From Marsupella aquatica (Eukaryota > Plantae > Marchantiophyta), in the NCBI GenBank assembly GCA_973895155.1, contig OZ316891.1:27441561-27505560 (forward strand): 64,000 nucleotides of DNA. Direction: 5' to 3'. Of this stretch, positions 12,739 through 39,884 are shown piece by piece. The notes below the pieces were generated by a model. That model was not told the DNA's origin. It saw only the letters and a program-made list of their open reading frames with translations, and did not search any database. The number at the start of each line of letters is the position of its first letter. Position 1 is the first letter of the stretch. The translations under genes and the position numbers were made by a program.

Positions 12739-15232
12739 GGTGACGATGAGAACGACGACGGCCTCCGCCTCTCTCCTTCTGATACTCCTTCACGGATCAG
12801 TAGCACCTCCACCTGTGCGAGTCCCGTGCAGCCAATTCCTCCAAACGCAATCCGCTCGTTCCTGCACTTCCTCACTCCCGCGCGCCGCCGGTGGCTCCTT
12901 CAGAATCGCCTCAGCGATAACACGAACGAACTCCCTCCTCAATTTTCCTGCCCTTCTTCACTCCATGTCGCGGACGGCGGCTCCGTCCGAGTCTTCCCGG
13001 CGTTACAAGCAACCCGACCCGAAAAGTGGAACCCCCGCCGCATCAATTGAAGAGAAACATGAACGCCTTCGTCACCGTGGGGAAGACTGAGAGGATGCCA
13101 ACAAGAAGGTACGCCGAAGACCAGAGCAATCCTTCGAGGATTAGCACAGGCCAACCGCGCTGCCGCCGTGCCATCTAAAATCCGAGCTTCTCTCCGCAGC
13201 TTCCACTCCGCCTCCTCCGTCAACCATTTCTCCCGATGCGCATCTCGTTAGGAGGCTCATCACTCTTCGCTCAATAGTTCGTGCTCTTCTTTATGTTCTT
13301 CCTCCTCCGACCTCCTCCCTCCTCCGCGAGCTCGAGCTCGAGCTACCGCAGCAGTACAGAAGCTCGATTCCGATTCCATGGGGAGCTCTTCGCACGGGGC
13401 TGGAATTGGGCTACTGCTACATCACTACGACTGTAGTAGTCGTAGTCTCTCTCGTCGTTGAGTCGTTCGCCATTGAAGCATTCCAGAACTCCGATTGGAC
13501 CGATTCCGCGTGTCCAAGAGAGATTCGCAGACAGCGGAAGAAGTGGAGGACTACCCAATGGGAATCCTCCACCTTGCGGTTGGCTGACTCGTCTAGTCTC
13601 CTTATTGCTTGTTTCTGGATGACATTGATAAATTGTCTGTCATCTTGGGGAGGTTTTATCTAACTTTTGGAGGGATTGGGTTGTCCTTGGGGAGGTTTTA
13701 TCTGACTTTTGGAGGGGTTGAGACCCATTCTAGGAATGAGATGAAAGGAAAGGAAAGGAAAGGTACCTACACTCAATTTTGGATGACACAAATGGGTGGC
13801 TTTACAAGAAATTGGGGGCACTTTCAACTTTTTGGGGGTTTTCAAGATGTGATGAGGCCATCATGCATTGGGGAGAAAGTGAGAAAGTGCTGCTATTCAC
13901 TTTACAAAATGTTGGGGGCATTTTCAACCTAATCTATTGCCAATCCTACATGGAATGGAGTGGGGCCCAAATTTTGCTCATGTGGAGCACGTTTTTGTCC
14001 TAGATTTTAGACCCACCTATATTGGAGGTCTCTTCATTTGGGGGCTTGGTCCAATGGTATTTTGAGTAGTTTAAAAGAAGACCCACATGCCCCTCATGTT
14101 GCAGTTCACTTACAAGACATTGGGGTCATAAAATGATCCTAAACTCCAATAGCCCCAGTACACTATGTTTAGGATGTTAAATTGTTGATATATTAGCTTT
14201 GGTAAAAAAAACAATTCAACTGCCCCCAAGATCTTGTAAAGCCACCCTAAGTACCAATGCCAAAGTCAGTGACAGAACTTGAGCTGGCGCCGTCATCTAA
14301 ACATTGATGCATCTAATTTAAAAATATATATATTTCTTTGTCACTTTGAAGAATAATTTAATTTTTAATTCCTCTCAATAAGATAGGATAGTTTCTTTCA
14401 ACTTACTAAAGGACAAAATAACTAAGTGAATGCCAGGATGGCCAGTAATTAAAGTGCATCGAGTTTGAAACACATGAAAGATGAGTGCATGAAACCACCT
14501 GACTGGGTCCAAACAGTCCAGCAGATGTGGCCCTCAGGTGATTAGTTAAGTCCCCTCCATGTGCCTAGTGTGGGGCAGGTAAAGGGTCAGTTGGGAGTCT
14601 TTGGTGGAGAGCATTCTAGGCCATCATGTTGAGTTATGGGCCAGCACCTAGCTCTGGTCCTACCTTTGACTCTCCTGGTTCTGGTTGTGGTACTCAATAA
14701 CGTAGACCCCTGGGCATTGTTTGCCATGGAGAGACGTGCTTGATGGACCCCCTGCCACTACAGTAAAAGTTTGCCTGATCACAATATTCATTAAAACTGG
14801 AAATTTAAAAGTCCAGATTGTGATCCTCAAATTTACATTCTTGTCTCTAAAAAGTCCATTAATTTTGCTCCAAATAAACAATTTTTCAAGACTAAATATA
14901 CACTCTTTTTGGTTTAAAATTACACTTTTGCACTCCAAATTTGATTTTAATCAATTAATCATAATACAGAAATTATTAATATTAATTGTATTTGAAATTA
15001 AATAGATAAGTGACAAACATGTATCATTTGGTCAAAAACTCATGATTAAATTCAAAGTGAGATTAATCATCTCATTTATCATAATATATATTCAAGGTTG
15101 GCTAGCCATAATGTCGATCCTACTCCAATGGTCAAGCTAGTGTAAAGTCCAAAGTAGTTCTATGACCTGTGAAATAGAAAAATGATTGCATGACTCCAAT
15201 CTTGTGTCCTACAATGTACAGAAACATAATGA

Positions 15233-16312
15233 TTAATCATCTAAAATTTCAAATTCTATGCCTCCATGAATATGTCTACATGACTGATTTGAACAAGTGA
15301 GTCGCTCTCCATTTGGGTCATATAGTCTGTCACGAGTGCAAGTGTCTTTGGGATAACGGTTTTTAAACTTAGAGGTGAGATCCCTAGTCTTTAGAACTTC
15401 CCAGACAAATCGGCAAGGATTTTCTCTGAAGGGGCCTGCATAAGACTCGCCCAAACAGTTGTTGACCACATCTTTCATATCATCTTCGGTCAGGTTCTCA
15501 AATGTAGGGTAGGATTGTACCATATCCCTCACTTCCCAACATATCTCATCTCCAGTGACATCCAAGATGGTATACTCAATCTTGGAACGCCAAATCTTAC
15601 TTCCCCACTTATGGGAAAGTAAATCATAGATTGCAGCATTACTTTCACGGTCATCATTTATATTAACAAATGACCAAAGTGGATTGTTGACAGATATATT
15701 TTGTCGGATGTCATAAGCCTTCCACAATTTTCTAAGGAATGGCCAAAGTATCTCTAGTAAAAAAATGTCACTCTCGGCAATGTGTGAGAAGGGAGTTGGG
15801 AACAAACCACTATACTGTGGATTTGCAAAAGCCTTCACTGGAGAGTCATCAATAAGTAGAGTGTTTGTATCATCATACTTGTCTCCAAAACGACTCCACA
15901 CCACACGCAAATCCTTCAACATAATATTTGCTTTCCCATCTGCTACGTCCGGTCTTTTTATGCCAGTATCAAAAGCATCTTCTTGTGTGAAAACAAATTT
16001 AAATTGCCTTCGCTCCTCTTCTTTGAAAATCAAATTCATCATTTAATTAGTTCTTGGCCTCCCCGCACAAGTCCACAATGCGACATCAAAACCTTTGAAA
16101 GCCACCTCCAAAAATTGGTGCAACCCTGGCCTTTCCACGTACATGAAATTGAATCCACCCCGTCTCCCCCAATGCACACCCCGCACAGTTGTTGTAGATC
16201 TTAACGGTCCCGAGCTTTTTGTTTTGACGCAATCCCAACAAATTTTGTTCAGGTCCAAAATCAAGAGTTTTCTTCTTATATCAGAGTGCAATTTAGGAGT
16301 GAAATTTGCAAA
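15233..16312 (-). pseudogene. FCP1/NIF-type HAD phosphatase-like cargo gene, disrupted
   Basis: KLLILDLN..YVERPGLHQFL..FDVALWT..VFTQE..LKDLRVVW..NTLLIDDSPVKA..NP motifs. In-frame TAA at 16045-16043; the 5' end is cut by the CACTA insertion. Confidence 0.8.
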
Positions 16313-17121
16313 CACTGGTACATATTTTGGGTTTTTCCGATGCTCTTCTTTCGGTCGGCAACACTTTCCGATACAGAGAAGATCGGTACTCTCCGATTGT
16401 CCCCGCATCGGGGATTTACCATAAATTCTACATCGGACACATACTGTCCCATACTATTAGAATCGGAAATAGTTTCCCATGTAAAAACTATCGGAGAATT
16501 TCCCATTCTACCTGCATCGGACAATGAGACTGCCGCGACGCAAGAGGCGTCCGATAAATAAAATATCGCATGTTGGTTCCGATGAACTTAGGGATGAAAC
16601 ATTTCCGATATTTTTGGAATCGGAAATGTGTTCCGACTTGTGTCCGAACCCATTACAAACGGACGTCATTTCCGATGTGATAAAGATGGAAAAGTTTCCC
16701 GATACCTGTAGTATGGCATATGTGTTCCGTTTCTTTTAATATCGGAAATATCGGTTTTTAGTAGAGCCGGGGTTTTTTGAGGGTTTTATCATCTTCCTAG
16801 CTTCTAATTAAGGCATGTTGTGTTTCCGATAGGTTTTTGACTCCATTTCCATTTGAAGTATGTGGGAACTCAACTAGGGTCAACTTGAAATGAATTGGAA
16901 GCTTTCATTTCATATATATTAAAAGCACAAATATATAGCCACAGCTAGAGCCCAGAGATTTAAGTGGTATATATAAGTAAAGTAACATGCAACAAAAAAA
17001 TGGTAATGACAATGTAGATAACATATATATGCCGAAAAAATCAATACATGGAGGGAAGTGGTCATTAATTAGGTCTAGCTAGTGCTAGCTACCTAGCTTT
17101 TACCATGAAATTCCTAAGTAG

Positions 17122-20100
17122 CTAGTTGTTCTCATTTTCCAAATCTTCCACAACAACTACATTTGGCTGTTCTTGGACTATGGATCGGGATCGTGGAATG
17201 TAAGGCATTACAATGGACCACTCAGGATCATCTGGATAAGGGAGATAGAATGCCTGCTCAAGATTATGAGGAAATGCAAAAGGATCTGAGGCCCTCCAAT
17301 TTGAGCTGATGACAGCCCCTATCTTCAGTCATGTGAAGCCGCAAGCATCCTCTTCACATGTTTGATTGTGGCCAACAAGATTCATCCGAAACCATTTGCA
17401 CTTCAGCACCACCTCTTCCAATGTTGTATGCGCATGGTATTTTACAACAAGGATCTCCTCTATCTTTCCATAGTGAGCTATAGTAGAACGGATGGGATTT
17501 GTGTCAGATCTGCTACTTACAGAATCCTGGGTGAACCAACCCATCACCCCACAATCTTGTGTAGCTGCCCTCTTGTCATCAAGTCGTTCCACACGAAAGT
17601 GTCTCCCCTTGGACCACATGGCAGTCCTGGTTGTAACTGTAAGTAGAGGTCCATGAACCAAGGTGCGCAACTTATCAGTTACCATTGGGACGTGTGATAC
17701 ACTCTCCCCAACAACCACCAAGGCATCCACTTCTAACAACTTCCCCTTCATGTACATGTGGAATTTGGGAAATAAGCGTGGTCGTCGACTATTGTGCTTA
17801 TCCTCCTCATAAAATGTGGTCCACTCCCCAACAATCTCTGGAGAGTTATACAACATGAATGCAGTGAGTTTAGTGCGCTCACTACGGTCAAGAAGCCGTT
17901 CTCCCTTTGCACCTGTCAAACGGTCATCCTCATAGTCTGTTTCTCTTGATGCCTCATCTATCCACCCGCTTGGAGCATTTGAATCAAGTGTAGCAATAAT
18001 GTTTGTACAATAAAACATGCTCTCTGCTCCAAGATGACGCTCTGCAATGCTACCTTCCACCCTTGCGCGATTTGAAACATAGGACTTCATCACTCCCATG
18101 TACCGCTCTACCCAGTACATCCAACGACAATGTACAGGGCCTGCAATACCAACCTCACGCACTAGATGTAGTAGAAAATGAACCTGACCATCAAAAAATG
18201 AAGGAGGAAGGGCCCTTTCAAGTTTGCACACAACCTCCACTCCAAACACCTCCATTGCTGCAACCTCATCCTCGTTCACCTCCTTTTGACACACCCATCT
18301 CAACAACTTACCCAACGACCAAAGGGCATCACGAAGATCCTCACTACCCAATCCAATAATAGCAATTGGAATAACATGTTGCAATAAGCGATGATAATCA
18401 TGGGTCTTCAAGAAAGCTGGCCATTTTGGAGAGTCAAGTTCACCAAATGCCTTGCGAAGATTGGCACCATACCCTGTAGGAAATCGCATAGACCCTATGC
18501 GTTTGCGAAACTCGGTCCGCTCACCTCGTGTCAAAACCCAAGGAGGATGAATAGTAAGGGGGGCATTATCGGGATCCATAGATGGCCAAAAACCATGAGG
18601 GCCATGCATCCCCATCTCTTCACAACTCTCTCTCCAGTTGTTGTCTTTCTCTCCATATAGGTGGCGAATCAAGGACCTCCCAACATTTCCCTCAATGTGC
18701 ATAGGGTCAAATAAATGGTTAAGTGGCATCTCAGCCCAATAAGGCAGTTGTGACAATGCAGACAAACAAGTCATGCCACACCGGGCATATTGCAATGGGT
18801 CATCTGGATTAATACTCTCTCCCATACCTCTTTCCAATATGCAGGATCTTTTGGAATAGGTTGTGGTCGTCTGTCTGGTTGGCCATCCTCAGTGTCATAT
18901 AAAAAGGGGTCTCTCCTCCAATCATGGTCTGGAGGGAGGTACTTGGTGTGACCAATATACACTATCTTCCTCAAGGTCTTTGACTTTGGCCGCGCTATTC
19001 CTTCCAAATCAGGTCCACAAGTTGGGCAAGCTCGATATCCTGATGTGGTCAGACCAGAAATATATCCAAACCCTGCATATAAATATATATCCCATGCATA
19101 AGTAAATAAGTTTATTAAAAGATATATGTGCTTCTAGCTAACTCAATACATAACAAAGTATGCTAGGTACGGTTGCCTAGCTATGGGAAGGGATAATTTA
19201 ACAAAGATTCATACCTGGAAGATCATGTATGGTCCACATAAGAATGGCCTTCAACTTAAATTCTCGACGTAAGCCCCCCGTTTGCACTCGACCATCATAG
19301 CAATCCACACCACTCCAAAGCTTTTGTAGCTCCTCAATCAATGGTTGCAAGCACACATCAATTTTTTTCACTTGCTTAGGACCAGGGATAATCATGGAAA
19401 GGAGCAAATGACCCTTCTTCATGGACATCCATGGAGGGATGTTGTAATTAGTAAGGACCACTGGCCATAGTGAATATGGTTGGGCCTTACCTGCTAGTGC
19501 AAATGGGCTGATGCCATCCGCTGCCAATCCTAGGCGAACATGACGTGGGTCAGTTCGGAACTCACCCCATCTCTCCTCCACAAACTTGTTTGCAGGGGAG
19601 TCAACCATCATGCGCATGGTGGGTGGTTGTGAACTCATATCTGAGCGATTTTGGGAATGCCAAACCATATACTCAGCCAACTCAGCACATCTATATTGGT
19701 GGCGCAAACGAGGTATAAGAGGAAAGTACCTCATGACCTTCTGAGGAACTTTTCCCGTCAACATGTCCTCACGATACCTAGGCTTCTCACATGTAGGACA
19801 TGACGTTGCATCTTTATAAGTGCCTCTAAACAGAACGCAATCATTCACGCAAGCATGTATGACTTTGTACTGCAGACCTATGGACTTCAACACCTTCTTT
19901 GCCTCTTTCCAAGAGTCTGGCAAGTTGTTTCCTTCTGGCAAGATACAATCATGCAATGTCCGAAAGAGATCATCAAGAAGTAGGTTGCTTGCTCCATGTC
20001 TTTGCTGCAAGTTCAACAACAACATTATTGCTGAAAGACAAGACAAGCGTGATCCATCAAATATCCAAGTTTGCGCATGTTGGCGTGCTTCCTCCCACTG

Positions 20101-21801
20101 TTTGGAGGCTGAACTCCTTGAACCTTCTTGATGTGGAAGTGGGACCTCAATGTTCTCCCTATCAGCCATGTCATGATCACCATCCTCTATGTCATAGAAT
20201 TGGTGCATCAAGTCATCCATGGCCCTATCTTCATCAACTCTTGATTGGGAGGCATCTGGTTCCTGCTCTGGAACATCCGGATCGCCATCTGGTGGTAGAG
20301 AGGCATGTTGCCAATCTTCCATGGCCTGCACAAGGTGTTGGCGTATAGCTCGTGGTAACACCCCAACATCCGGCTCAACATATGCATTCTATCATACAAC
20401 GCACAAAACAGATATATACGTTTGAGTTAGCCCATGGGTTCCTAAAAAAACTACAATATTCTTATATTACTTCAAAAATGGGGAATACACATATGTGCTA
20501 AGTGTGGCCAGATCGAATGCCCATCGTGGGTGCGTTCCATTCATAGTCACAAAACAACTCATCACCCGCCCTAATGGTCCGTATGGCTACTGTCATAACA
20601 TGATCATCCATATGTGTGACATAGTAAGGCGGAGTGGGTGGGCCAAAAATCTGAGCCCACTCTACATTAGGCTGGAGTCCACTCCCTCTACCATGTGTAC
20701 TATTGATGTACCCAGCTATGTTATCTGAACGGACAGGGTCCCCATCAATCATCCTACAATGCCAAGGCCTCCTTAGGACCTCATCTGGGTCTGAGTCCAT
20801 CTGCAATGCATATACCCCCCAAGCTGGATGTTGGCGCAAGAGGATGTTCCAACTCTTGGATGTATACACAGGCCCAATGTAAGGGAAAAGGTGTTCCCCA
20901 TCATAGCCACGACGCCAAGGCTTTGGAGGGACCTCAATGTCCTCCAAAGCAAATAAGCCTAACCCAACCTCCCTGCCAAGGGTCGATGCCTTCACTATCC
21001 ATTGCCGACCCCATATATGTACAGGGATGTCAATGGCTAGGCCACGAGGAATCGCAAAACTCTCAGGGTCAAAATCCTTGAAGACACTGATTGCCTTTCC
21101 CGTCACATATGACAAGCCCAACCTCCCTTCAACTTCTATGTACTCCTCCCCTGGTGGAGGCATAACACTCGTTCTAAAGTGCTCATGGGATGGGTCTGTG
21201 TCTAGAACTACATGCTGTTGTCGACGTCTATGAGAACGTGGTCTTGTGCGTAGAACCCTAGTAGGGGGCGGTGCATCATCCCTACCATGCCCCAACTCTA
21301 CCACTATGGGTTCATGAACAACATCTGCCTGAACATGTGCGGGGGTACATGATTGCTCGGGGTCTTCAACTGATGATGCAAGCAACTGTCTAGCACCAGC
21401 TAGGAATGCATCATGCCATAGTTGACTAGAGACCAATGGAGGACGGGCCCTACAACGCACCTATTCAATCATAAACAAACAAAAATTAATACTTGTCTCC
21501 TAAAAGGTCTCAAACCAGCCAACTATTATGATAGTGTATCATATATAGCGGAGTTCATGTCAAGCAATACCTGGCGAGCTGAATATCCCGGTAAATCACC
21601 CTCATGTCGACCATAGTTTTCAATGTGTTCAATGGACTGCCACGCTTGACGAACCACCAGTCCTTTACATCTAAGACACCAGCATGGAATAGGGCCTAAT
21701 GGAGGGGGTGCTCGAGGCTGTTGAGGGGGAGGAGGAATGTCCCCCTCAGAGGAAGACAAGTCAGAGTCGGAATCTGTATCCAAACTCTCAGAAGTCGACA
21801 T
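17122..21801 (-). pseudogene. CACTA TnpD transposase (Transpos_assoc, Transposase_21, DUF4218, DUF4216)
   Basis: Exons 21801-21571 (CWCLRC..HIENYG), 20388-19215 (HACVNDC..RLGLAADGISPF..SLWPVVLTNYNIPPW..IPGPKQ..DVCLQPLIEEL) and 19072-17122 (ACPTCG..DPMHIEGNV..LKTHDYH..GPVHCRWMYWVERYM..YGKIEEIL..KCKWF..DPFAFP). Frameshift near 18815 and an in-frame TGA at 17331-17329. Confidence 0.9.
20498..21801 (-). CDS. SET-domain protein (putative lysine methyltransferase) encoded within the TnpD intron
   Basis: Open exon 21460-20498 with SET motifs VKASTL..GLGLFALEDI, FPYIG, YALQM, IDGDP..DNIAGYINS, PNVEW, VMTVAIRTIRAGDELFCDY. The AG acceptor at 21462-21461 is in phase with the donor of exon 21801-21571. 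Confidence 0.8.
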
Positions 21802-24800
21802 TGTCTGCCAATTACACATAAACAAGTCTTTACCAAAATGCAAGATTGATTCATCACCCTAACTTGAGGTAAACCCAAACAGGAAATATATAGTATGTTA
21901 ATAATTTGCAGTGTTGGACTTAATTAGTACCTGAATGATATCCGCGCTCTACAGTGCCTACTAGGCTCTAAGCCTTAGACTATATGCTAAGGCCAATCCA
22001 AAAAAACCTGCACATACAGGCTAGGTGGGGAAGTTGAAAGATGAGATGACATACATGCAAACCTAAGTAACAAACCAATAATTAATGAAATTAATAAAAA
22101 TCAATGACGAGTTGGATGTCCAATTATAAACTCCCACAAGTAACGCATATATCATGTCAAATATTTCCAATACATTTTGGAGGATCATATATGTCATACC
22201 TTTTGGATGCGCGTACTCTCGCTGTGCATAATGCATTGGCAAAAATAAACCCTACTAAGAAAACCAAGGAAAAGCAACGACCCGACCCTCCAAAAACAAA
22301 AAATACAAAATTGCACAAAACGGCACTAGAGTGTTAATTTAATTTGTGACTTCTTATAGTCCCCAAAAGTTGCACCATGCATATAGCATTGCCTCATGGT
22401 CAAAATGGGAATCATTTAAAATCAAACTGAAAATAGATCTGGGTACATACATTCAATGATCATCCATACCCACCAAAAAATAGTGTGCTAGCTTTGTCAC
22501 GGCAACTGTACGTTGATATGCCCGTTTTGCGCCGCACACCTAATAAGCCCACAATATAGCATAATTAACCCCCAACTAACATAAAGGGGGTCATTATAGT
22601 ATACATGGGATCCAAATGCCAAAGTCCAAATGCCAAGGTCATGCGATTCACAAACCATCAGAAAATACATTGGGAGGGTTAAGTCCGATACTTTGGAGGA
22701 GGGGTCCGATACTAAGTCCGATTGACCTAGAATCGGAGTTTCCGATGCAGAAAGTATCGGACGTTATGCATTTTGGGTTTTTAGGTCACCCGACTAAAGT
22801 GCGAAGGCACTCTAGTCGGGAAAAGCATCGGGAGCATTTCACGATACCTTTGCGGAGCTCGTAGCGATGGAAGGGAATGCGGGAGGGATGGGAGATGGTG
22901 CCGGGCCATCAAGCAGCTATGGTGAAGTCATGGCTCAATTGTTTAGGGAGAAGGTGGGGCTCTCACCAGAGGTTGCATTGCAGGTAGCCCAGCTCACTCA
23001 AGGACTGATCGACAGCTCCCAGAAGGTAGCCATCACTGATGCAGAAAAAGCTTTCCAAGCCAGACTCGAGGAGGAGAGATTGCAGAGGAAGAGGAAACGT
23101 AACACTAGGGAGGACGAGAGAGAGAGGCCAGTGGAAGCCCTATCACCAAGACAAAAGGAGAAGAGCCTAAGGAGGGAGGCTCGGGCTGCAGAACGACAGA
23201 GAATTCAGGAGGAACGAAAGAAGGCAGAGGATAGGTCCAAGAGGCCAAAATTGTTTCTGAATGAGGGAGGTGCTCCACTCTCCAGGAGTTATCGTTTGTT
23301 TGGGAGTCAAGTTAGGCAGATTGTGAGGTCTCATTTTGGCCCGATGGACTACTGGGGGAAGAAGAAGCAGGATGAGAGATTTCGAATTCGAGAGCAAATC
23401 AAAGAGAGATTTTCGAATGGGTCGTTTGTGGACGATCGATTCTTAAACAAAAAGATCTCAGTCTCACTTGCAGACATGCGAAATCATGTACGAGAGAAGA
23501 TGCGAAAGTACCTGGCTGAATGCAAACTGGATGAGGAGGTGATCAGGAAAGGGGGAAGCCCAGCTGGTGAGATTCCTGAGAATGCTTGGTGTGCCTGGCT
23601 TGAAGAAGAGTTGCAGGTTCGAGCTTGGCAAGCCACACAACGCTGGGAAGCTGAAATTCAAGCAGCTCAGAAGAAGATTGAACAAGGAGAGATGGTGAAT
23701 ACTGCACCCATGCATCAAGAACTTGAAGAATGGTCAGCAAAATCAGCCCTGCTTGGAGACCCACCATCCTGGCTAATGAAAGCTCTGCTGAGAGTAACAA
23801 AGAGGCCAAAGGTTACTCACAGAATGGGGCAAGGCGGATCACAGCGTCTCAAGGCCGATTTTGTAAGTGCTCCATTCCCCTCCTCTCCATGCATTCCTTC
23901 AGCAGCATTCCTCCTCCCTAATCACCTGAGGCCAATTGACGAATGCCTAACCCTTCCAAACCCGGGACAGGTCTTTGTATGCCCGTAGGTCGCTCGATCA
24001 TGCCTTAGTTTTTTTTGCTTTCGGCATATAAGGTCCGATTCTAGTCCGATCCTCTAAGTATCGGATGCAGCATCGGACAATAAAAAAGAATCGGAACTGT
24101 CGAGGGTGCCGATTCTATTAGTATCGGACATATTCAAATTTTTGAATAGTTTATGCATGAACGGCTAAGTGTTCTTATGGGTCTTTGACGGTGAAGGGTT
24201 TATATAGGTGTTTAATTAGGCCAGGGTAGGGTTGCTATAATTGACCTTAGTATTGGGGGTGGCATATGGTTTGGGTGTGTAGGAGAAAGAGCACGGACGA
24301 CCATTATTGCCGGCAGAGAGAGAGCTGGCAAAGGAGCATGGTGCTCGGGCGCTAAAGATTCACATGGACGACATGTTGGCCTCGGTAAGTGCGGATATTA
24401 GAATGATTTGAAAGATGGCTTCATGCTGGTATGTATGTTGCGGAATGACATATGGATTGGAGATTGTTACTATGTGCAGGATGAGTCAGGGGGTGAGGAG
24501 GACTTGGAGAGTGAGGAGGATGGTGAGGGGGAGGAGGATGAGGAGGATGCGGAGGATGATAGTGCTTCAGAGGGGAGTGTGGCCGAGGCTCCAGTACGAG
24601 GTTCTACTGGTGCACGTGGCCGGTCAGGACCCCGAGAGAGTGGACGTCACCAGTCTGGTCGGGGTGTAGGTGGCTCCACTCGTCGGATGGAGCATAGAGC
24701 AGGTGATATGCCTCCTTCTCGTCAGAGATTAGCCGGTAGGAGTGGACGGAGTGAGTCCCGGGTTCCAGCCACAGTAGGTCACAACCGAGGGGTTCATAGT

Positions 24801-24908
24801 GAGTCTGGAGTTCTAGCCACAGCAGGTGGTCGAGTGAGGACTGGCCCTGGTGTTGTACCAGGTGGGTCTCGACAACGGACTGGTGTTCATACTGGTCATG
24901 TCGTTGGC

Positions 24909-25540
24909 CAGTCAGGAGGTTCCGGCCGTAGTGGTGGAGGTGAGTCTCGCCCTGAGGGGGGTAGTGGTGGAGTTGTTGCACCTCGTCAGTTTAGGGCTGG
25001 CCCTGGTAGTGTACCAGCTGGTTCACGACAGTTCGGGGGAGGCCTTGGTGGTCATGTGCCCACACCATCTCCTGTTCATAGTGGTGGTGTAGGCATCCAG
25101 TCTGGAGGTTCCGGCCGTAGTGGTGGAGGTGAGTCTCGTCCTGAGGGGGGTAGTGGTGGAGTTGCTGCACCTCGTCAGTTTAGGGCTGGCCCTGGTAGTG
25201 TACCAGCTGGTTCGCGACAGTCCGGGGGAGGCCTTGGTGGTCATGTGCCGACACCATCTCCTGTTCATAGTGGTGGTGTAGGCATCCAGTCTGGAGGTTC
25301 CGGCCATAGTGGTGGAGGTGAGTCTCGCCCTGAGGGGGGTAGTGGTGGAGTTGCTGCACCTCATCAGTTTAGGGCTAGCCCTGGTAGTGTACCAGCTGGT
25401 TTGCGACAGTCCGGGGGGTGCCTTGGTGGTCATGTGCCCACACCATATCCTATTCATAGTGGTGGTGTAGGCACCCAGTCGGGAGGTTCCCGTCATAGTG
25501 GTGGAGGTGAGACTCGGCCTGAGGGGGGTAGTGGTGGTGG
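24909..25540 (+). repeat. 189-bp (63-aa) coding tandem repeat, ~3.3 copies
   Basis: QSGGSGRSGGGESRPEGGSGGVAAPRQFRAGPGSVPAGSRQSGGGLGGHVPTPSPVHSGGVG repeats with starts near 24909, 25098, 25287 and 25476. Confidence 0.9.
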
Positions 25541-25596
25541 TGCTGGAGGGGCTTCTTTCCACACTTGTGTCGGGGAAGGAGTGCCTTCCCATGGTT

Positions 25597-27196: not shown

Positions 27197-30100
27197 TTAA
27201 CCTCCACTACTAAATGACCCATATTCATCTATCATTTTATCACCTAGATCACTTTGGATATCAGAATTGACGCCAACAGGAAGTTGCTCCACCAACGTTG
27301 GCGGCACAAACACTGGACTCAATCTCAATTTGTCTATTATGTAATCAGGTTTGACCATTAACTTAGGCGCATCCTCCAACGTTTCTTTCAATCCAACTTT
27401 AGGTCCATTTCTCCAAATGAAATGAGTTGCATGACGGACTGTCTTCATATATCCTGTTCTACCTATCTCAGATCCAGACTTTTGAGACAAGCGTAATATT
27501 ATGGGGCTTCCGCTTGACATCCTTGTGAAGACCAATTTATTCCCTGACGAACAAAATTGAGGAGACTCGGAACAAGTTGAAGCACCTGCCTCTTCAGCTT
27601 CAACATTTGTTGTCTCTCCAAGTGGAAGGTTGTCTTCAATCGCTTCTGCAATACCAGCTTGTAGGTCCGTGGTGGGTGTAGTGGCCCCAATATTCTGCCA
27701 ACCTGCATCCAATGTGCACGATACCTGCGGTCTCTCGGGATGCAATTTTGATACTTCAGGGTTGAGAGGATTTGATGGAGGGTCGCTCTCAGGGCGACCC
27801 GACATCACTATGTCGAGTTGAGGTAGCCCTTCAACACCATAGGTAGTAATGCCAACCATTTCTGTTGCTCGAGCATCCCAATTTCCGCCAAAATCCTCCT
27901 CTACCATAGGACTTGAACCTCCATCATCATGCTGCAACTCACCATCCTCAAGGTCAACTCGCTGAGGGCCCGGTTGGGGGTTGTCCATAGGCCCGCAAAG
28001 AACACTCAGATGAGCTCTACTAGGACCATGTACTCCCATCCGATCTTTCATAAGGGAGGGAATCCTGTTGCACAAAACCCTTGCATATGCTTGGGTGAAA
28101 TGGTGTTCTTGCAAAGTGGCTGAATAGGCAAAACAATCTCGGTATGCCAACAAGGCCACCTTCAAAACCTGCCCTCCTGAAAAAAAATCGAGGAAAGTCT
28201 CCCCCTCACCAGAAAAACATTCAATAATATTTTTGAGCATGTGTCGGGGCTTGGCATGCGGATTGACAAATCCTCCTCGACTTCCGACCATCTCAAACAT
28301 TGGAGCTTGCCGCAATAAATCTGCCATATCAAATGCGGGAGACTGCTCCTCTATCTCATTCTCTTTTCCCTTGCTTTTCTCTTGCTTGTCAGCCTTCACT
28401 TCAATATTGAAATCACAGTCAACATCGGGGTGAAAACTAAATTTTGAATTGAACTCTGGCTTAAATAATTGATTCCAATCAAAATTGTCTTCACCTGTAA
28501 TTCCAGCAAAAATGACCTGCTCAATCGCTCCTGTAAAAATTAAGCCCTGCGGATTTGGGCGATCTTCCCGATCATAACTCCCATATTCAACATGGATGGC
28601 CAAATGCTTTTCATGTCCTAATTTCCTTAGGGCACTTAAGATGTTGGCTGGAAGTGGCCCTGGATGAGTAGTCATGACAACTACAATGGTTGTATTCCTT
28701 GGCAACTCCACAATATATTGGAGCAATACAAAAATTTCCGAATCTGTCCATTCATGTTGTTGTGCCCTACTAAAATCAACAATTGCAAGTGGACACATTG
28801 GCATCGCCTCTTCCAATAACTCTAGCGTGGTTGTCTTCATTAGATTCTCACTGAAGAACGTCAAGAAAGGCTCTGTTCGTGTGCGCCCAACTCCACCAAA
28901 TTGTTTGCAGTACAACCCGTCTAATCTCACCATTAGACTTTGAGGGAAAGCCTCCTTCACAATGTTCTTCCTTAATAAACTACTAAGGTAGACCTCCCCA
29001 ACTGCTCTTCGCAATTTTGTCAACTCAAGTTGAGATCCCAAGGCCGGCATGATGTTGACCACCGAAGCCCACGATGTCCCCCCGGGAAACTTCTCCTTGT
29101 GCTTCTCAACAAAGTACTCAACAATGACTTGCTTCAATTTAGTCATTACCTTGATGGTATGAGCCATATCTGGCATTGACACCAAATCCATCTTGTTGGA
29201 GGCATCTTTCTTGAGAAGTGCTTTCTTCTCATAAACCGCGGTCAATATATCAATGATATCCTTAGAACTGATCTCCCCTTCAAAACATCTAAAAAGAGTT
29301 GGCGTGACCAACTTTAGTGGCCGCGGCCCACCATACTCTCCTGCCCCGCCAGGGAGCTTCCCTGCCAACCAATCCCAACAAACAGTTTGCCATAAATGGA
29401 AAAGCTTATCCTCAACAAAGAGCAACCAAAAAATGGCTTTCAAGCTCGACTTTCCCATTGTTATCTTTGCGAGGGCAAACCAATCCTGCATTTACATTCA
29501 TCCACCAAAAAACATGTTAGATGTTTAAACTTAGAAACTTCAACTTCTCTGCCTCGCCCCTAGAGCGAGGCGAAGAAAATGACAAAGCCATATGAAAATG
29601 GTTGGGGCAAATCGTTCAATTTCATTTGGGTCGCTCCAAGAGCGAGGCAAAATTAAACTACAGTTCCAACTAATGAAAATGTTTACCTGGTATTTGTGGT
29701 TGTCTGTACTTTGGTTTGTTCCAATTCCTGGACGCGGTGGTTTCCCACATTCATCAAATTGCCTTCTCGCATGAACAACTGTCTCTAGAAAACAAGACTT
29801 AAATTGCATGGTCTGATTTACTGCATTTGAAAGGCTCGAGTGCTCGACCAAAATTGCCCTTGGAGTGAGGTCTGATAAGATCCTCGCTTTTCGATATTGG
29901 AGTTTGCTAGCAAGATCAGTTAGCTTGGCATCCTTGTCTGCCCACCCTTGAATCCATTGTGCAGCCTTTGCGGAATGTTGCACACTGATTGCAAGAAATT
30001 GTATTTCTTGCTTCTTAACACCAAACAAAAATTGCTTCCGATCGCGTGCGGTATTGTCAAAATGTAACAACTGCTTAGTGCGCTCTAGAAATGGAATCAA

Positions 30101-31797
30101 ATCTGCAACATGTGGTTCTTGGCCAGGGTTTTTCATCATTGATTTTGCTATCTCTAAGGCATGAGCCTGGTTGAACATCCGATACACAAAAACTGCAGTA
30201 GGCGGAAGAATACTTTTAACCAGGATTTCAAAAACCTCCGTGATTCCAAAAGTGTAGTATTGCTCGATGTTCCGCAAAGCTTTCTGCCCCTCCAATACAT
30301 CTCGTTCCTCTGGTGCATCTGTTGGGCATGTATCATCCTCCGGATCCAAGACCAACCTTGCTTTTGACGCTGACACGGGCTTTGATTTTCCAATCTTGGC
30401 CTTCTTCTTGGGCTTCTTGTCGGAGTCCTTATCTTTCTTCTTCAACGCCGCCTTTTTTCCTCTAGTACTTCCTTGACTCCTTGGCTCTCTTTGTTTTCTC
30501 TTCTTTTGTGTTTCAGCCGACGTCATTTCTTTGGCCTTCATCTTCATCTTCCCCTTACCTCGATGCTTTTCTTCCTTCTTCTTTTGAGTTGAAATCCACT
30601 TCATGCAAGCATCTTCGTCAAACTCATCAGAGAAAATAAAACTCTTATCAATTGCTTGCTCATATGAAAAGCGTGTTGTTTCAATCATCCTCTCGACAAC
30701 CCATGTGTTAGGAAGATCTATAAGGTCCGGATGATCATGCATGTGCCGCTTCACAGAGAGGAATCCAAAGACAACATCAACCCCACTCAATTTGAATCTT
30801 CCATGCCTCTCAAGAACATCCTCTGCAGTGAACCCATCTGGAAGAAATCCCATTGAACAAATACTAGCCTCCGAGCGTGCTATCCACTCCACGTTGATAA
30901 TTGACGAGTACATCTTGATTGGCAAGTAAAGTCTCATCCACTGAGATCTTTCTCTGGATTCAATAATGATTGTAACATTGCGGTTATCACTGCAATTTAC
31001 AAGGACCACAGGGCCCAACGCAACTATCTTCTTGTCGTTCATTGTCTCAGCAGTGATTGCCTTGATACAAATCATCGACAAGTCATTCTCCATGATCCCT
31101 ACTTCAAGTGCCCACGAAAATCCTGCCTTATCTTGTCTAGGGAAAATAAAGTCCTTGACATCCTCGGCCATAATATTTAACTCTGGGGATCCAAGTTGTT
31201 CTCCTGGCAAAACAAATTGAAACAACAACCATTAAAACAAGAGATCTTCTGTGTTGCCTCGCCCCTAGAGCGAGCTGGAGACAAGGTCTGCATCAACAAA
31301 CATGTGGGTTGGGTCGCTCCTGGAGCGACCCTAGGAAAACTTAAATCAAGGTCCAACCAACAACAAATTTGGGTCGCTCCTGGAGCGACACTAGGAAAAC
31401 TTAAATCAAGGTCCAACCAACAACAAAGTTGGGTCGCTCCTGGAGCGACCCTAGGAAAACTTAAATCAAGGTCCAACCAACAACAAAGTTGGGTCGCTCC
31501 TGGAGCGACCCTAGGAAAACTTAAATCAACGTCCAACCAATAACAACGACAAATCTTAGGCAAGATAGGGTCGCTCTAAGAGCGACCCTTCAAAGACTGA
31601 CTTGCATCAATTGTTGAATCATACTTACGTGGAACTGTGATATGAAATCCCTTTGAGGCGGCCAAAGCGGATTCCACCGACATCTTTAGTAAAGTGTCTT
31701 GAGAATCATACTCAAAGATTTTACTAGAATCAAAGTTCAGGGACTGCCCAGAACTAGAAGTGCTAGTAGAATCATCAGAACTAGAGGAAGTGGCCAT
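27197..31797 (-). CDS. ~1324-aa ParB-like domain + beta-class N6A/N4C DNA methyltransferase-like protein (transposon cargo)
   Basis: Exons 31797-31629, 31203-29687 and 29485-27197 join in frame through GT-AG introns with no stops. ParB-like segment: YRMFNQAHALEIAKSM..FLAISVQHSAKAA..YRKARIL. MTase C-terminal motifs: VNPHAKPRHMLKNIIECFSGEGETFLDFFSGG..VALLAYRD. Motif IV appears degenerate (AIVDFS). Confidence 0.7.
31311..31550. repeat. 60-bp tandem array x4 with palindromic core, in intron 1 of the ParB/MTase gene
   Basis: Unit gggtcgctcctggagcgaccctaggaaaacttaaatcaaggtccaaccaacaacaaagtt starts at 31311, 31371, 31431 and 31491. Confidence 0.95.
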
Positions 31798-32857
31798 TGA
31801 AAAATGCCTCACAAACGTTTAGATGACACATGACAGCCTAGTATACAAGAATGCTTATAGCTAGACCACACCACGGAGCGAGGCTACAGAGCAAGGAAAA
31901 AAATCTACTATGAGCAAGGCAAAATCAACAGAGCGAGGCAAGAAAATCTACTATGAGCGAGGCAAGAGGGAGGAGGGAAACCAGGGCAGCCGGGCAAGAA
32001 GACAATGAAGGAGGAGATGGATGCAAGAAGACAATGAGGCAAATGAGGTAATGTCTTTGCCTTTTGCCTTCCTATACCCTCACTGCCACGGCCGATCCTA
32101 CCTGCGACCCCAGCCACGGCCGATCGTACGCGACCTTACGCAACCCAGCCACTTGCTCCCTTCCACGCGCCTGTGAACTCGCAACCCTCATAATGACCTA
32201 GCTGTACGGGTATCCATAGATTTTGAAAAATGATGCACGGTCGTACGGGTGTCCACATAATGCCGATCAGAGTAATCAGACTTTCGGCCTCTCGATGTTG
32301 TGAACCCCTTCAGGACAAACTTGGCTAAAGCTTGCTCACAAATGGTATAAAGCTCTACAGTTCCAATCATTTCTCTCTTTTGTATGGCGCGTGCGTTTCT
32401 GGTCATTGCTCACTCTCGGTCTTGCCTTTTGGCCCTTGTCTATATTGCTTCTATTCGGTGACTGATTCGACTGACTTGGACATTTATGGTTACAAGAGTT
32501 CGTGCAAGGAAAGTCCTCACTGTTTCAAGTACATTGCATTAGTTTTGGTGTCCTTGGTTGGCGACACGTCTTCTATAGTCCTTAAGAGAGGTATTACTTC
32601 ATCTACCATTCTCTTAATTTCTTCTCTATGATATCCACCAAATATTTGGCCCTAGCTTTATCTTAATATATGGACCTAACTAAGCCCTAGATAATGTAGG
32701 GTTCCTAACGACACACTCGTCTACCCACACGTCTACACACTTCAATGGTCTAATTCAGCTTAATCATTCCCCTGATTTATTCATTTCCATATTTTCTCTT
32801 TTCCTTCACAATTCTTGCTTCTCCAGGATTGTGCTCGTCTTTTCTTGCTCTCCCCTT

Positions 32858-33260
32858 GCCTCGCTCCAAGAGCGTCATGCCCTTGCCTCGCTCCAAGAGC
32901 GTCATACACTTACCTTTCATCAGGAGCATCCGCTCTCCATTGCCTCGCCATCAGAGCGTCCCTCAACCGCCTCGCCCCTAGAGCGACCCTCCATCGCCTA
33001 GCCCCTAGAGTGACCCTCATTCACCTTGCCCCTAGAGTGTCTCTCCATCGCCTCGTCCCTAGAGGGACCCTCATTCACCTCGCCCCTAGAGCGTCCCTCC
33101 ATCGCCTCGCCTCTAGAGCGACCCTCCATCACCTCGCCCCTAGAGCGACCCTCCATCGCCTCGCCCCTAGAGCGACCCTCCATCGCCTTGCCCCTAGAGC
33201 GTCCCTCAATCGCCTCGCCCCTAGAGCGTCGCAACCTTGCCTCGCTCCAAGAGCATCCCT
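32858..33260. repeat. 27-bp tandem array (~15 copies) between the divergent MTase-like and transposase genes
   Basis: Consensus cctcgcccctagagcgaccctccatcg; shares the TCGCYC-nnn-GAGCGA core with the 60-bp array. Confidence 0.92.
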
Positions 33261-33437
33261 GACCTTAGAATCCTGTTGTGTAAAGCCAATACACATAAAC
33301 TCCCAAATATTTTTTTCCTTTAAATAGAATTCAAATGTTTAGATCTAAAATTGTAATATCTAGAGTAGTGCTTATCAGTATGCACATTAGCTGAACAATT
33401 TTTAAATGTTTTTGGATGCAGAGATCCTTTCGCTACC

Positions 33438-36400
33438 ATGAGTAAATTTATGCGAGGGGATGAAGTTTCATTGATAATTGATGGTTTTGAAGTGGCAATT
33501 GGGACCATCCAAAAGGTTGATCCCAAAGACACTATACACAATATTTGTCTTGGGAAAAATCGAATTGGGGTCCTTATCGAGAGGTGTCTTGAAACATCTT
33601 GTCCACTACCATTTCCATCCAAAACATCATCGAGCCTAGGTGATGCAGTTGACTCGTGTGTGATCTGGGATTCTTCCTTGGCATATTTGAGGTCTTCAAC
33701 ATTGCCGAAAAGAACCGCTGTGGATGGTGTTCCTACTCCAGTGGACGGGGATGAAGGATGTTCCAAAATGGACGTTGGTGGTAAAGGAGGCAACCTTGCT
33801 GAAGGAGAGGAGGTTGAGATGTTCATTTTAGATGAACTTGTATCAAAAGGAGTTGTCTTCAATACCAATCCAATGGACACTTGTCATAGTGAACGACTCG
33901 GTGTTGGCCGTGTCAGTATACAAATATCAGAGGTTGTTCAGGGAAATAGAAAATTACCGTATCCGCATCCTGGAGCTGACACAGTGCAAGAGGCAATGCA
34001 GACTTGGGTAATGTGGGATGTTGTTGATGTTTCAAGAAAAGGCTCTATTTGAGGTTCTGGCATGTTTGTTGGTGCAAACCCGGGTGCAAACCTGTTTAAG
34101 GATCTTCCATTGAAAGATTTTACAATGCGTTCCAACTAGATGGCAGAGGAAGTTGACTTGTATGATGTTTCTTGTTGTCGTAAGGTTGCGACAGGGGTTA
34201 TCACAGTTCCTTTTGAAGCAGGTGTTGTTGATGATGAACTTCTTGGTCCAGAGCATGTGGGTGTAGCTGTTGTGAATATCAACGATCCTGCATTATTTCC
34301 AAATATCCGTGCTGGTACTCCAGGTTTGGTGAGGTGGGAAATCAAATCTTTGTTGTTGATTTCATCTCAAATGTTTCTCGGGGATATCCTTGAGAAAGGT
34401 TCACATGTGTGGATAGAATCGGGTCGAAATGAGAGCGACCCGGATTTGGATGGTGATGGGAAACCTCCAAAAAGACCTTATAATTTCATTAGAAGGACCA
34501 AAGTGGATCTGGAGGAGAAAAAAAAACATTTGCAATCAAGGGCGCTTTTGAAAATCACCGAGGAGTCCATTGATTCCATCCAAAGAGAAGGTTGTTGCAG
34601 GTTAAAGTGTTGCTTGAACATGCCAAGAGAGGACTTGGAGGCAATGAGGAGGGAATTCCATGGAATGTCAAGTGACAACAAAACAAGTCATATCTTCAAT
34701 CTTTTTGGGTGTAGAGAAGACCAAGTCAAGAGAAAATGATTTTTTGTTCTAAAGGGACGTGTGGTTTGTAAGGATGCGTTCATAAAAATGCATGGGTTTA
34801 GTACGGCAAAGTATTATGATTACAAAAATCAGTACGAAGCTGGGTGCACAATTGGTTTCCATGGAAATCAAGGGCAACATAAGACACGATCAAGCACCTT
34901 GCATGCTCGTGCATTGTTGGAGTCCATTTTAATCCAAAATGGAGAACCAATGCCACATCTTCCCTATGGTGGGTCCAACGGCACCGATACTGTCGAATAT
35001 CGACTCCCATCATGTTTCACTAAGAAGGAGATTTTTCAAGAGGTATTTGCAAAGATGGAATTGGACGGCTATGCTAAGGTTACTGAAGTTACCATGTACA
35101 ACATCTGGAAAAATTCTTTTGATAATTTTGACTTTCACAAGGGCAGTGCATTTGCCAAGTGCACATTTTGCACTGAGTTCAAAGATCAATTGATGCGGGA
35201 GAAGAGAAAAAAAGAGCGTGCAGAGATTGAAGAGAAAAGAGCACGACATCTTCGTGAACAAATGTCAAGGAGATATGTTTACTATGCTCATAGGGTTCTT
35301 GCAAAGAAGGATCCTCAAAATTATCTTTGCATTATTCATGATAAGATGGACCAAGCCAAGACTTGGATCCCCAGATTGGTCCCCACTCCAAAATCTCTCT
35401 CTGGTAGTGGTCAACCTCTGCCCATTGCCCTTACTGGGATGTTAACCCATGGAAGGGATCCAGGAGTGTATGCACACTTTAGTTTGACTGGCCTTTGGCC
35501 TGGAGATGCAGACTTCACTGTGACATCTTTGGCCAAATGCCTTCGAGATTTGGAGGATTACACTGGAGACAAAACGGGAGACATGCTTGAAGCTTTCAAT
35601 TGGAACGCAACTAGGCCAATATTTCAGTCTCTTTTGGACTTTGAAGCATTTCAAGCGGGTTACTTGGAACCCAAAAATGTTTCAATTCTCAAGTTTCAAG
35701 GCCTTGATGACGTCAGGAGAGCCAAAAAACCAGCACAACAGATGCTGGTTCTAGAGTTGATCCTGAGACTACGAGCTCTTTCAAGCCCTTACCAAGGCAC
35801 CTAACACTGCAGATGGACAATTCAGGAAAAGATAATAAAAATCAATATGTGATGGCATTTTGCAGCGAACTTGTTAGCAGGGGGTGTTTGAAACTGTGCA
35901 AATGTCATTCCTCATGGTTGGCCACACCCATGAGGATGTGGATGCACTATTTTCTCAAGTATCCAAACAGGTCAGGTACAAAGAGGTTGCTACCCTCCTT
36001 GCGTTGATGGCTGAGGTTTGGGAGTGTGAAAGCATCCATCCCGTACCACGATTGATTCAGGAGGTTGCATCTTACAAGCACTATTTGAAGGCTTTCCAAG
36101 TGAAAGAGATTGAAGGTCACTCAAAACCAATGGCATTTCTATTCTCCATGAGGGATAATGTGCCAGTGTATCAATATAAAGCACATGTCAAACAACCTTG
36201 GCTTCCAGCAACAGGGAGGTCAATTTGGAGAACTGATCTCATCACAAACACGCTCATTTTACCTGAGGGCCAACCATTTGCAAAACCTATATCGGGGGAG
36301 GTACAAAAGAAAGCCGAGGAAATCATCCCATTCCTTAATCGTTACATCGATTTCTTGAGGAAAAGTTGCAAGGATGAGACCTCTGCAGCATACCGCGAGA

Positions 36401-37170
36401 GATTTCCTTTGGTGAAATATTGGGAGAGGCTTGTTATGGCACTCTCTGAGGCACTTACAATAGAAGGGGAGGGAGAAAGACAATTGCCATTGACAACTGA
36501 TTTCTGGCCAAAGACTAATCATGGCACAGGTTACAAGGTGATTTTGGGGACCTCTCAACCTTCAAGTGAACCTACTCAAAATTCAGAGATGATGGACCTT
36601 CAAAATGAGTACATGGAAGAGATGGAAGGTCAAGCTGCACCCTTCGTTGGTGCACGAGAAGAGCGAGAACTTGCACGTTGGATTCCCCTACAAGATATTC
36701 AAGAGGGTCACTTTGTGTTTTTACGTCCAGAGGATGAATGGGAGCAAAAAAATGGCAAAGGGCGTTTCTGGTTAGTTCGAGCTTTGGGTGGTGTGGATCC
36801 AAACCATGAGGTTTCTTCACTAGATTTGCAATTTAGTGAAGGGTCTTCTTCAAGGTTTTCTAAGAGCATTCACCTAAGTAGCATTCCTAAGCGGTATGCT
36901 CCTATGTTCCAAGTGCAATGGTGGAGGCCTAAACATGGTAAGTATGATGCAAAGGATGATGTTCGATACGAACGTTGCTTTCAGACCACTAAGACTTGGG
37001 AGCTAGATCCTGGGTTTAACACTATCACTCAAAGTTGGCAGTTTGCAAATTCTGCAATGTATGGGTTTAAGTCAGGTGCCAAAGAAAAAAATATTATGGA
37101 TAGAGGTTTGACAATTCCCAAGAATGTTTTGAAAACTCTCAAAACTTACATGGAAGGTATTGATGAGTAG
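33438..37170 (+). pseudogene. DUF7869/Sola-like DDD transposase with 3 N-terminal Tnp1/Transposase_23-like repeats and a C-terminal SH3-fold (Tudor/chromo-like) region
   Basis: Motifs VCKDAF, FAKCTFC, IIHDKMDQAK, LTLQMDNSGKDNKN, FLMVGHTHEDVDALFS. In-frame stops at 34050-52, 34137-39 and 34737-39; frameshifts near 35710 and 35883. Confidence 0.85.
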
Positions 37171-39884
37171 AGTGATAGAGTGGTCACAAGTGTCCACTAT
37201 GTAATGACTTGTAGGTAGGAGGGTCAAGTTAATTTCCATGCATTTGTCTAAAGTAAGTGAGAGAACAAGGCTTGCAATCAAATACTCTATGATCTTTCTT
37301 AGTTATTGAATGGACTTTTTGATAATTATTGTTATTTTTTTTGTCTTAGTACATATATTTCTAGAAAATGATGGCAGTTCTAAGTTACTTGGATGTCATC
37401 CTAGTTTGAATATAAGATATTTAACTTGTCTAGCATTTCATTGTTGCTTAGATAATGATCCTATCCAAGCTAGATGTTTTGAGTATAGATGCTATCCAAG
37501 CTTATGTGTTATTACACACGTTCTATCTATTAATCAAATGAACACTTTTTATCACCCAAATGTTTTTTAATATTATCCAAATTAATATTTTCTTTGCCCA
37601 AATGTCTAATTTTTTGCCCCAAATTTAGAATTCATGATGCTTAAATTTTCGTTTTTCATCCTTCAAATTTACAATTCTTATGCCTAAAAGTGTGTTTTTA
37701 AATGCCCAAATTTCCAAATCTTCTTTATAATTCCACTTTTAATGAATATAGTGATCCTGATGAACTCTTCCACACCTTCTTTTTCAAATTGGTCTCCCTC
37801 TTAATAATCCATCCGAGATGTTTTTGTAGGGGATTTTCTAAAGTGGGGTTTTTAATACTAGGACCCAATTGGATGAACTACGACTCAATGTTTTGAACCA
37901 TGATCTCTGCTTGGTTGAACAGTGGCTCCAGGGTTTCTAACAAAAAACTATGTCGGGTTAAACTTCTGGCGGGCTGAATGTCGTTGTCATTGTTATGACA
38001 AGCCCCTCACTACCAAGCTGTCTGAACTTTAAATTTAGGGTAATCCAAAAGTGAAGACTATCATGTGAGTGCGGATTTTGGTTGTAAACCTCATCAAGCA
38101 ATGTGCCATTTACCCCCTGCCCAAATGGCAGATGTGGGCAAAACACCCAATAGCCAAAGAAATATGCAAAGTGTTAGTTGCAGACATTGTCCATGTTATC
38201 TTTCAAAAACAAAATCAGTCTGAGTCATTGATCCCCGCCCAAATTGCACAAGTGAGCTAAAAACCCAAGAGCCAAAGAAAAATGTTGTGTCAGCTGGACA
38301 ATTGTGGAACTCGATTACATTACCACTTAGCTCCGACATTGCTAACTTCAACTCCGAGCTTCCATATGGTCCAGGCCCTTGGGACGGCCATCGCTAAGTA
38401 TGTGGAGACTTGTGGGCAAGGAAGTGTTCTACTAGCGAAGGCGGTGCATTGAGCTAGTGGTGCACACACTGGCAATAGGAGCTGGTTGGGTCATGGGAAG
38501 GGCCGAGCTTACGGAAACCGTCCAGACCCTTGGACTCTAAGTTCTGAGAGCTTGAGTGAGAGCTCCTTTTGGGGCCCAAGTGCATAGAAGTTCAGTTCAT
38601 GTGTAACGTCAGATGCTTGGTGGATGAGAAACATCGTGGCTTGGGTGGAGCCTCTAGGTCCCCGACTGATGCCGAATCCCACAATAAATGACGAACTCCA
38701 TTACTCATATGATAGCACAACGCTAATAAAGTGAAATTGACTAAGCTTTGAGTTCTGAGGGCCCAGGCTAACCTAAATTTAGGTATTAGGTAACCTTACC
38801 TTGCCTGGCAACAGCAAATAGAGGTGAAGGCAAAGAAAAATGATCCACATATGAGCAAGACACATCTTTGGGGTTGAAAATCTGTTCCCGAGTAATGTAA
38901 AGGAATGGAAGTTGAACCAATTGGGTGGGGGCCATTGGCCTTTCCCACCTTGCAAAAGATTTTGTGGAGGAAGTCTTTGAGGAATAGAAGTATCGTGGAG
39001 GCAAGGTGAACTTTCAAGCCCTATGTCCATGCATTGTACAATTATTATTGCAATTGTGTTGTGCTTGTGGTCGGTGTGATTGTTGCAGAAATGTTGTTAC
39101 AACTGTGTCATCTAGATGTCGTCATTTGATGATTGTGGAGTATCGTTTGGGTGCATGTTTGTTGGTGCCACAATGTTGTCATTTTAGTCCATGTTGTTGT
39201 GAGAGTTGAGTAGCTATATTGTTGGGGAGGGCAAGCGTGTGGATGGGCGGCAAGAATGACCCAAAAATCATGGGGTACTGGTGGGGTTGTGCAATGCTAT
39301 ATACAAAGATAATGTTTTTTGTTTGCCCCTATTTCCCCTGCCTTAATTATGTGCCATTCCACCGGTGCCCTTAGAGTGCCTGTTTCCTTCCCCCCTTTTT
39401 CTTCCCTCCAACACCATTAAAATGGAGAAAAACATGGGGAAGAAAAGACAAAGTTGACTTCCAAATAATGAATATTCACTTTTGAAGAGCCAGACATTTT
39501 TCTCATGTCAATTTACTTTCTCTTTAGTTGTTCAAGGCCAAACCAGTCTCTCACGTAAATCCATTCATATTATATCCATGTCACTCCATGCCAAAAAGTA
39601 CCGTGTGAACTGGCTATAGAATAGCCAACATTGTGTACTTTGGCTACCACATGTCAGTCATTTTGTCACATATACTATACTTTACCCTACTATTCAAATG
39701 ATGGGCACCATTTCACCCACACCATTTCACCCAATCCCCAGAGTCTCAAATATTCCTGCACATCATCTCACATTAAAAAGTGTTCCCTCCCTTTTCCCAT
39801 TTTGTAAACAGACCATGAGAGGGATTATTTTGGTGTGATCCCTTATTCTAGTTGTACTGGCCCAATGCCCAGTGCGTTGCTCAG

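Follow-up and report, generated by a model that had tools for sequence, protein, structure and literature searches.

The 64,000-nucleotide stretch of Marsupella aquatica contig OZ316891.1 analyzed here (the window) contains a mobile element at positions 14778–37755 that measures 12,400 bp once a nested 10,575-bp CACTA transposon is subtracted (Table 1). Its genes comprise a DUF7869 transposase on the forward strand and, divergently on the reverse strand, two cargo genes, a methylase-like gene followed by an FCP1-like gene. The two ends carry terminal inverted repeats (TIRs) that agree at 23 of 25 and at 28 of 32 positions, and a CCTG target-site duplication (TSD) lies directly outside both of them. 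An earlier note on this DNA had proposed 25-bp TIRs, a 4-bp CCTG duplication and a size of about 12.4 kb without the CACTA, all of which are borne out. When the window was searched with 19 nt of the TIR, good matches were found at both element ends only; one extra weak match, at 37335, is AT-rich and has four mismatches. Extension of the TIR by one base (G..C) was rejected, as it leaves no duplication and repeat contigs stop at 37755.

Table 1 Features of the element and of its insertion site, in window coordinates.
Feature	Position	Strand	Basis or remark
Left target-site duplication CCTG	14774..14777	.	Sequence
Left TIR	14778..14809	+	28/32 identity to right end
FCP1/NIF-like gene, DxN motif, conserved C-terminal Cys cluster	15233..16312	-	Pfam NIF; 5′ end beyond CACTA, start not fixed
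Nested CACTA/EnSpm	16313..26887	-	10,575 bp; CACTG/CACTA ends; AAA duplication; Transposase_21, DUF4218 and SET matches
Predicted exon 3: helical region, methylase fold, acidic low-complexity linker, conserved C-terminal domain	27197..29485	-	
Predicted GT-AG intron, 2 palindromic motifs	29486..29686	-	Prediction; fused homologues
Predicted exon 2: N-terminal domain, Lys-rich linker, ParB-like domain	29687..31203	-	VQH in window copy, GQH in other copies
Predicted intron, 60-bp-period array of 21-bp palindrome	31204..31628	-	Prediction
Predicted exon 1, ATG at 31797	31629..31797	-	In-frame splice; prediction only
27-bp-period array of TCGCYC-N3-GRGCGA near-palindrome, upstream of transposase start	32853..33260	+	
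DUF7869 (Sola-like) transposase, Cys clusters, candidate DDD triad	33438..37170	+	Pfam DUF7869, homologue motifs
Right TIR	37724..37755	-	28/32 identity; high-depth contigs terminate at 37755 in runs X1, X2, X4
Right target-site duplication CCTG	37756..37759	.	Sequence

Matching DNA was found in six sequencing runs from three organisms, and four runs entered each comparison of contigs (runs labelled X1 onward). Run X1, whose contigs match both flanks with 0 differences, possibly provided the window itself and hence offers no independent evidence on this locus. Its listed contigs have a depth of 256–349 over the cargo, the intergenic DNA, the 5′ transposase and the right end and 14.8–18.3 over the flanks, placing the element at roughly 17–21-fold flank depth, a rough guide with no contig spanning the whole element. 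High-depth contigs terminate at exactly 37755 in three of the four runs, which fixes this boundary and suggests that the following base varies among copies. A form lacking the CACTA is represented by one X1 contig (depth 314) that spans 14800–16309 and 26888–27410, and the corresponding joint, 16309>26888, is present in X1, X2 and X3, not in X5. Neither an empty-site joint nor a loose end at either terminus was seen among the contigs listed, and the same contigs yielded no second TSD of the window's own family. Other copies differ by about 1% from the window copy and read GQH in place of its VQH; among the contigs listed, they are free of three window lesions (one frameshift and the stops in the FCP1-like gene and at 34737 of the transposase), from which we conclude that the window copy is decayed. 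That a genuine multi-copy family exists is nearly beyond doubt, and the earlier proposal of a defined plant transposable-element family holds, as the element is multi-copy, is flanked by a 4-bp duplication and has its cargo linked to the same transposase type elsewhere.

Two of three transposase pieces scanned match Pfam DUF7869 above its cut-off, in agreement with the earlier placement of a transposase on the forward strand; we take DUF7869 to belong to the Sola superfamily. The motifs HDKMD, Q[ML]DN and GHTHED[VI]D are present in 10/10 transposase homologues and provide candidate residues for the DDD triad expected of Sola. The TIRs and the 4-bp TSD, CCTG in the window and ATAT at a related metagenomic locus (one TSD per family), likewise agree with Sola; the placement relies on Pfam DUF7869 combined with TIR, TSD and DDD features rather than on Repbase Sola1/2/3 profiles. 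Against PDB the transposase gave no match, and Pfam scans of the window and homologue proteins turned up no KDZ family. The window copy is interrupted by stops at 34050, 34137 and 34737 and by two frame changes. Its homologues bear an N-terminal PF26133 domain that is apparently repeated (33438–34050 in the window), and over the transposase core (34492–37243) summed contig depth is far above cargo depth in all four runs. We regard the element as a multi-copy cut-and-paste DNA transposon and its membership of the Sola superfamily as likely; on the strength of the DDD motifs, TIRs and 4-bp duplication, the DUF7869 protein would excise and insert it through the TIRs.

An uninterrupted frame encoding some 1,324 amino acids runs through the three predicted exons of the methylase-like gene, which two predicted GT-AG introns separate, and the homologues P0043, P0119, P0130 and P0136 unite the ParB-like and methylase-like parts in single proteins. 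Within predicted exon 3, at about 28055–28880, lies a beta-class amino-methylase fold. The Pfam N6_N4_Mtase match is sub-threshold (19.4 bits versus a cut-off of 26.7), a 48-sequence profile of the domain finds M.RsrI at E 9e-10, and the structure model of the domain (predicted local distance difference test, pLDDT, 87) matches CcrM with Z 17.4 and a root-mean-square deviation of 3.4 over 213 residues. Further structural matches are MboIIA, RsrI, HpyAVI, PvuII and the rotifer N4CMT, and the model shows the circularly permuted Rossmann fold with the motif order IV..X-I-II of beta-class N6A/N4C methyltransferases. The catalytic (D/N/S)PP(Y/F/W) motif is degenerate, with PPY/F/W in 0/46 homologues. 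The motif IV Asp is retained in 34/35 rows, and Asp237 of the model ends a strand at the expected motif IV; the pairing of DFSR with DPPY comes from a local profile alignment of low confidence. The motif X Lys is found in 29/33, and both residues, together with the motif I sequence DFFSGG, are conserved across 20–50% identity. Motif I is one residue shorter than in three phage methylases, and at the motif II acid position Ser stands opposite their Glu. Throughout the homologues the folded core is conserved while the linkers drift. Because the PPY motif is absent from all 46 homologues, active DNA modification by this protein appears unlikely from its sequence, and the DNA-modification function proposed in the earlier note is not upheld.

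The same note had described a ParB–methyltransferase fusion. Profile and fold sustain the methylase part; the ParB call is weakly supported by the GQH motif and one language-model search, in which homologue P0136 retrieved DUF3723 (0.96) and a cluster with 35% ParB_N (0.91). The structure model of this part has a pLDDT of 44 and returned nothing in Foldseek and VIA searches (best Z 2.7), and the part has no match in Pfam and PHROG profiles or in tblastn against phage. Viral contigs yielded no relative, and phage methylases match the methylase domain weakly (E 0.06–0.7). The methylase fold is likely of prokaryotic or phage origin, with no donor found.

The FCP1-like gene, at the 5′ end of which the CACTA is inserted, matches Pfam NIF above cut-off in both halves, so that the domain claimed for it earlier stands; a function as a phosphatase of the polymerase C-terminal domain (CTD) is not supported. 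The catalytic motif of FCP1/SCP phosphatases is DxDx(T/V), HAD catalysis should be severely impaired where the second Asp is missing, and plant host relatives with DxN exist. The window copy reads DLN, and among the homologues collected (n=10) the eight covering the motif comprise seven DxN, one ExE and no DxD. Since none of the eight has DxD, CTD dephosphorylation by this protein is predicted to be unlikely. Besides the CACTA, the window copy carries a stop at 16043–16045 that is missing from the contigs of all four runs compared. As judged from these motifs, both cargo domains are probably non-catalytic.

With up to two mismatches allowed, the window contains 26 instances of the near-palindrome TCGCYC-N3-GRGCGA, where 3.15 would be expected. 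Twenty-one of the 26 fall within 2.4 kb made up of predicted introns and the DNA between the genes (19 in 31172–33368 and two in the 201-bp intron), and the motif is absent from the transposase and the right flank. The arrays are thus internal rather than subterminal, occupying predicted introns and the stretch ahead of the transposase start, and by analogy they suggest self-binding of the VANC type.

Association of cargo and transposase was also seen in other lineages. Four of 13 transposase hits were named, all from Riccia sorocarpa, with a fifth Riccia transposase from another search, and 23 of about 113 methylase-like hits were looked up by name. Calypogeia fissa has six methylase-like proteins on at least four contigs and Riccia has 13 gene models, many copies being fragments; one distant Ceratopteris protein matches the helical part only. 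These named hits point to a liverwort as the likely host. In Riccia the methylase-like gene R1sor_018197 adjoins the transposase gene R1sor_018196, while five tags separate R1sor_002462 from the transposase gene R1sor_002457; uniform shuffles give p values of 0.007 and 0.0003 for the proximities. These transposase-linked cargo genes sit in separate deep branches of a quick tree, and the gene model R1sor_016354 unites methylase-like and NIF domains, as in the gene order of the window; cargo identity between the window and Riccia is about 21–25%. A metagenome set provided 80 loci with the window's transposase type, many of them short. Three of these, L007–L009, are one locus in three assemblies. 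The element there measures 11.3 kb, has a TIR similar to that of the window and a duplication of ATAT, and encodes a transposase 28–34% identical to the window's; three decayed FCP1-like genes are divergent from the transposase, with a palindrome array between. The earlier note had considered that cargo homologues might never be linked to this transposase or TIR elsewhere, and the Riccia pairs and L007–L009 show that they are. We hold it to be very probable that the cargo linkage is old.

Several observations weigh against the reading of the cargo offered below. The depth excess over the transposase core hints at sister families, or relatives with other flanks, that have other or no cargo. In Riccia, for 11/13 methylase-like models no transposase on the list lies within five tags, and 3/5 transposases have no listed cargo nearby (nearest at 130–587 tags), both lists being incomplete; the p values from the shuffles are optimistic since transposons cluster. 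Among the 80 metagenome loci, many short, methylase or ParB profiles match in none and FCP1 in three, all of them the L007–L009 locus. The array motif of L008 is unrelated in sequence to that of the window, and the L008 element shows no methylase-like gene. A 4.6-kb element in L034 (8186–12827) has an L008-type TIR, an imperfect 4-bp duplication and no cargo; the cargo is therefore dispensable in that lineage. Finally, the placement of the motif IV Asp depends on structure ranges and the low-confidence profile alignment, and a global alignment mode misaligned it.

Our tentative reading, which falls just short of probable, is that the two cargo products act by binding rather than by catalysis and, by way of the arrays, maintain the expression of the element or its freedom from silencing. 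The ParB-like/methylase-fold protein would bind the near-palindromic arrays in the introns and between the divergent genes and, once bound, may shield these arrays from silencing or promote transcription, as VANC does for VANDAL elements. The FCP1-like protein would bind, and not dephosphorylate, a phosphorylated partner, for example the polymerase CTD. A wider proposal is rather doubtful: in an ancient land-plant lineage of Sola-like elements, a ParB/DNA-methylase fusion of prokaryotic type and a CTD-phosphatase fold would have been turned into pseudo-enzymes, the first reading parS-like palindromes of the element itself and the second engaging RNA polymerase II. Together they would make up a second sequence-specific anti-silencing system in plants, of independent origin.

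The arrays, a possible ParB-type DNA clamp domain, the conserved divergent layout and the degenerate active sites could be those of transposition helpers, with the ParB-like/methylase-fold protein binding the arrays and bridging or bending the element for the transposase with no role in chromatin; TnpA of CACTA elements is a comparable helper. However, in the CACTA-less element the arrays lie 4.5–15 kb from the ends instead of subterminally, the L034 element moves without cargo and the FCP1-like protein points toward transcription, and we consider this explanation unlikely. A methylase domain that is still enzymatically active through an unorthodox active site, marking the element with N6-methyladenine (6mA) or N4-methylcytosine (4mC), would account for the full beta-class fold and for the conservation of the motif IV Asp, motif X Lys and DFFSGG over such divergence, and eukaryotic 4mC enzymes of the beta class are known from Marchantia and rotifers; with PPY missing in 46/46, motif I shortened and the motif II acid replaced, it is quite improbable. 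That the cargo genes are passive captured passengers, useless to the element, as cargo-less relatives and the fragmented Riccia copies might imply, is very improbable given the open 1,324-codon frame, the conserved core amid drifting linkers and a linkage retained at such low cargo identity.

The binding-protein reading can be set beside several known systems. Sola elements have a DDD transposase and a 4-bp TSD and occur in a moss (PMC10741241). The window element shares with them the DDD-type transposase, the 4-bp duplication and short TIRs (PMC10741241); at 12.4 kb it is at the large end, and no such cargo was found in the Sola literature searched. The targets of VANC are tandem repeats in the non-coding parts of VANDAL elements (PMC10398659), and these transposons resemble the present case in pairing an accessory gene with rapidly diverging tandem repeats outside the coding sequence. 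In contrast, VANDAL is a Mutator-like element and not Sola, no VANC homology was seen and the binding here is predicted. Transposons with TET/JBP and SET cargo, including fungal KDZ elements, are likewise DNA transposons carrying a DNA-modification fold (PMC12730594); they differ in encoding dioxygenases, in belonging to other superfamilies and in occurring in fungi, and the term Sola is absent from the main text of that paper. The N6A-methylase domain of DIRS1 retrotransposons and METTL14, described alongside phage ParB-terminase methylase loci, are inactive, with the methylase fold preserved in the absence of catalytic residues and a proposed binding role (PMC4738411). In DIRS1 the domain derives from PCIF1 (group 2) and is part of a retroelement polyprotein, whereas the window domain has a beta-class (MboIIA/RsrI-like) fold and a gene of its own within a DNA transposon; main-text passages of PMC4738411 contain no land-plant Sola-borne clade. 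With CcrM, M.RsrI, M.MboIIA and rotifer N4CMT the domain shares fold and motif order, and Marchantia DN4MT1 is a further member of the beta class; the window domain differs in its 9–17% identity, in the replacement of DPPY/SPPY and in its position behind ParB-like and helical regions. Further literature touched on comprises PMC4455052, PMC5751038, bioRxiv 2021.02.12.428880 and bioRxiv 2021.09.26.461848. No description of a transposase combined with methylase-like and FCP1-like genes was found in the literature, with Repbase and subscription journals outside the search.

Other mobile DNA is present in the window. The nested CACTA is itself highly repeated, as judged by contig depth, and contains an open reading frame with a SET domain (20498–21460, reverse strand; PF00856, 30.3 bits, cut-off 22.4), a second chromatin-type cargo. 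A 305-bp insert inside the CACTA (25589–25893), of very high depth, absent from X1, X3 and X5 contigs, with nine shared letters, and with a related copy near 54923, is probably a short mobile element. Two elements resembling miniature inverted-repeat transposable elements (5739–6469 and 13794–14247) have 30–45-bp inverted ends, the second being at high depth, and an inverted 37-bp pair 9.2 kb apart and a 38-bp hairpin (43637–43673 and 52840–52926) are possibly another element. A short-chain dehydrogenase exon (59428–59904, reverse strand), presumably resembling fungal L-rhamnose dehydrogenases, is a possible case of horizontal transfer.

Taken as a whole, the element is a cargo-bearing DNA transposon, and its cargo is probably a pair of pseudo-enzymes. 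Known transposon-encoded counter-silencing systems are few, and this element is a candidate for which a protein, a predicted target motif and near-identical copies are at hand, in liverwort lineages that allow genetics and so make it tractable. The beta-class amino-methylase folds of Calypogeia and Riccia, with the distant Ceratopteris relative, form an apparently undescribed land-plant family. Annotation calls such proteins DNA methylases despite their predicted lack of activity, a point relevant to studies of 4mC and 6mA in plants.

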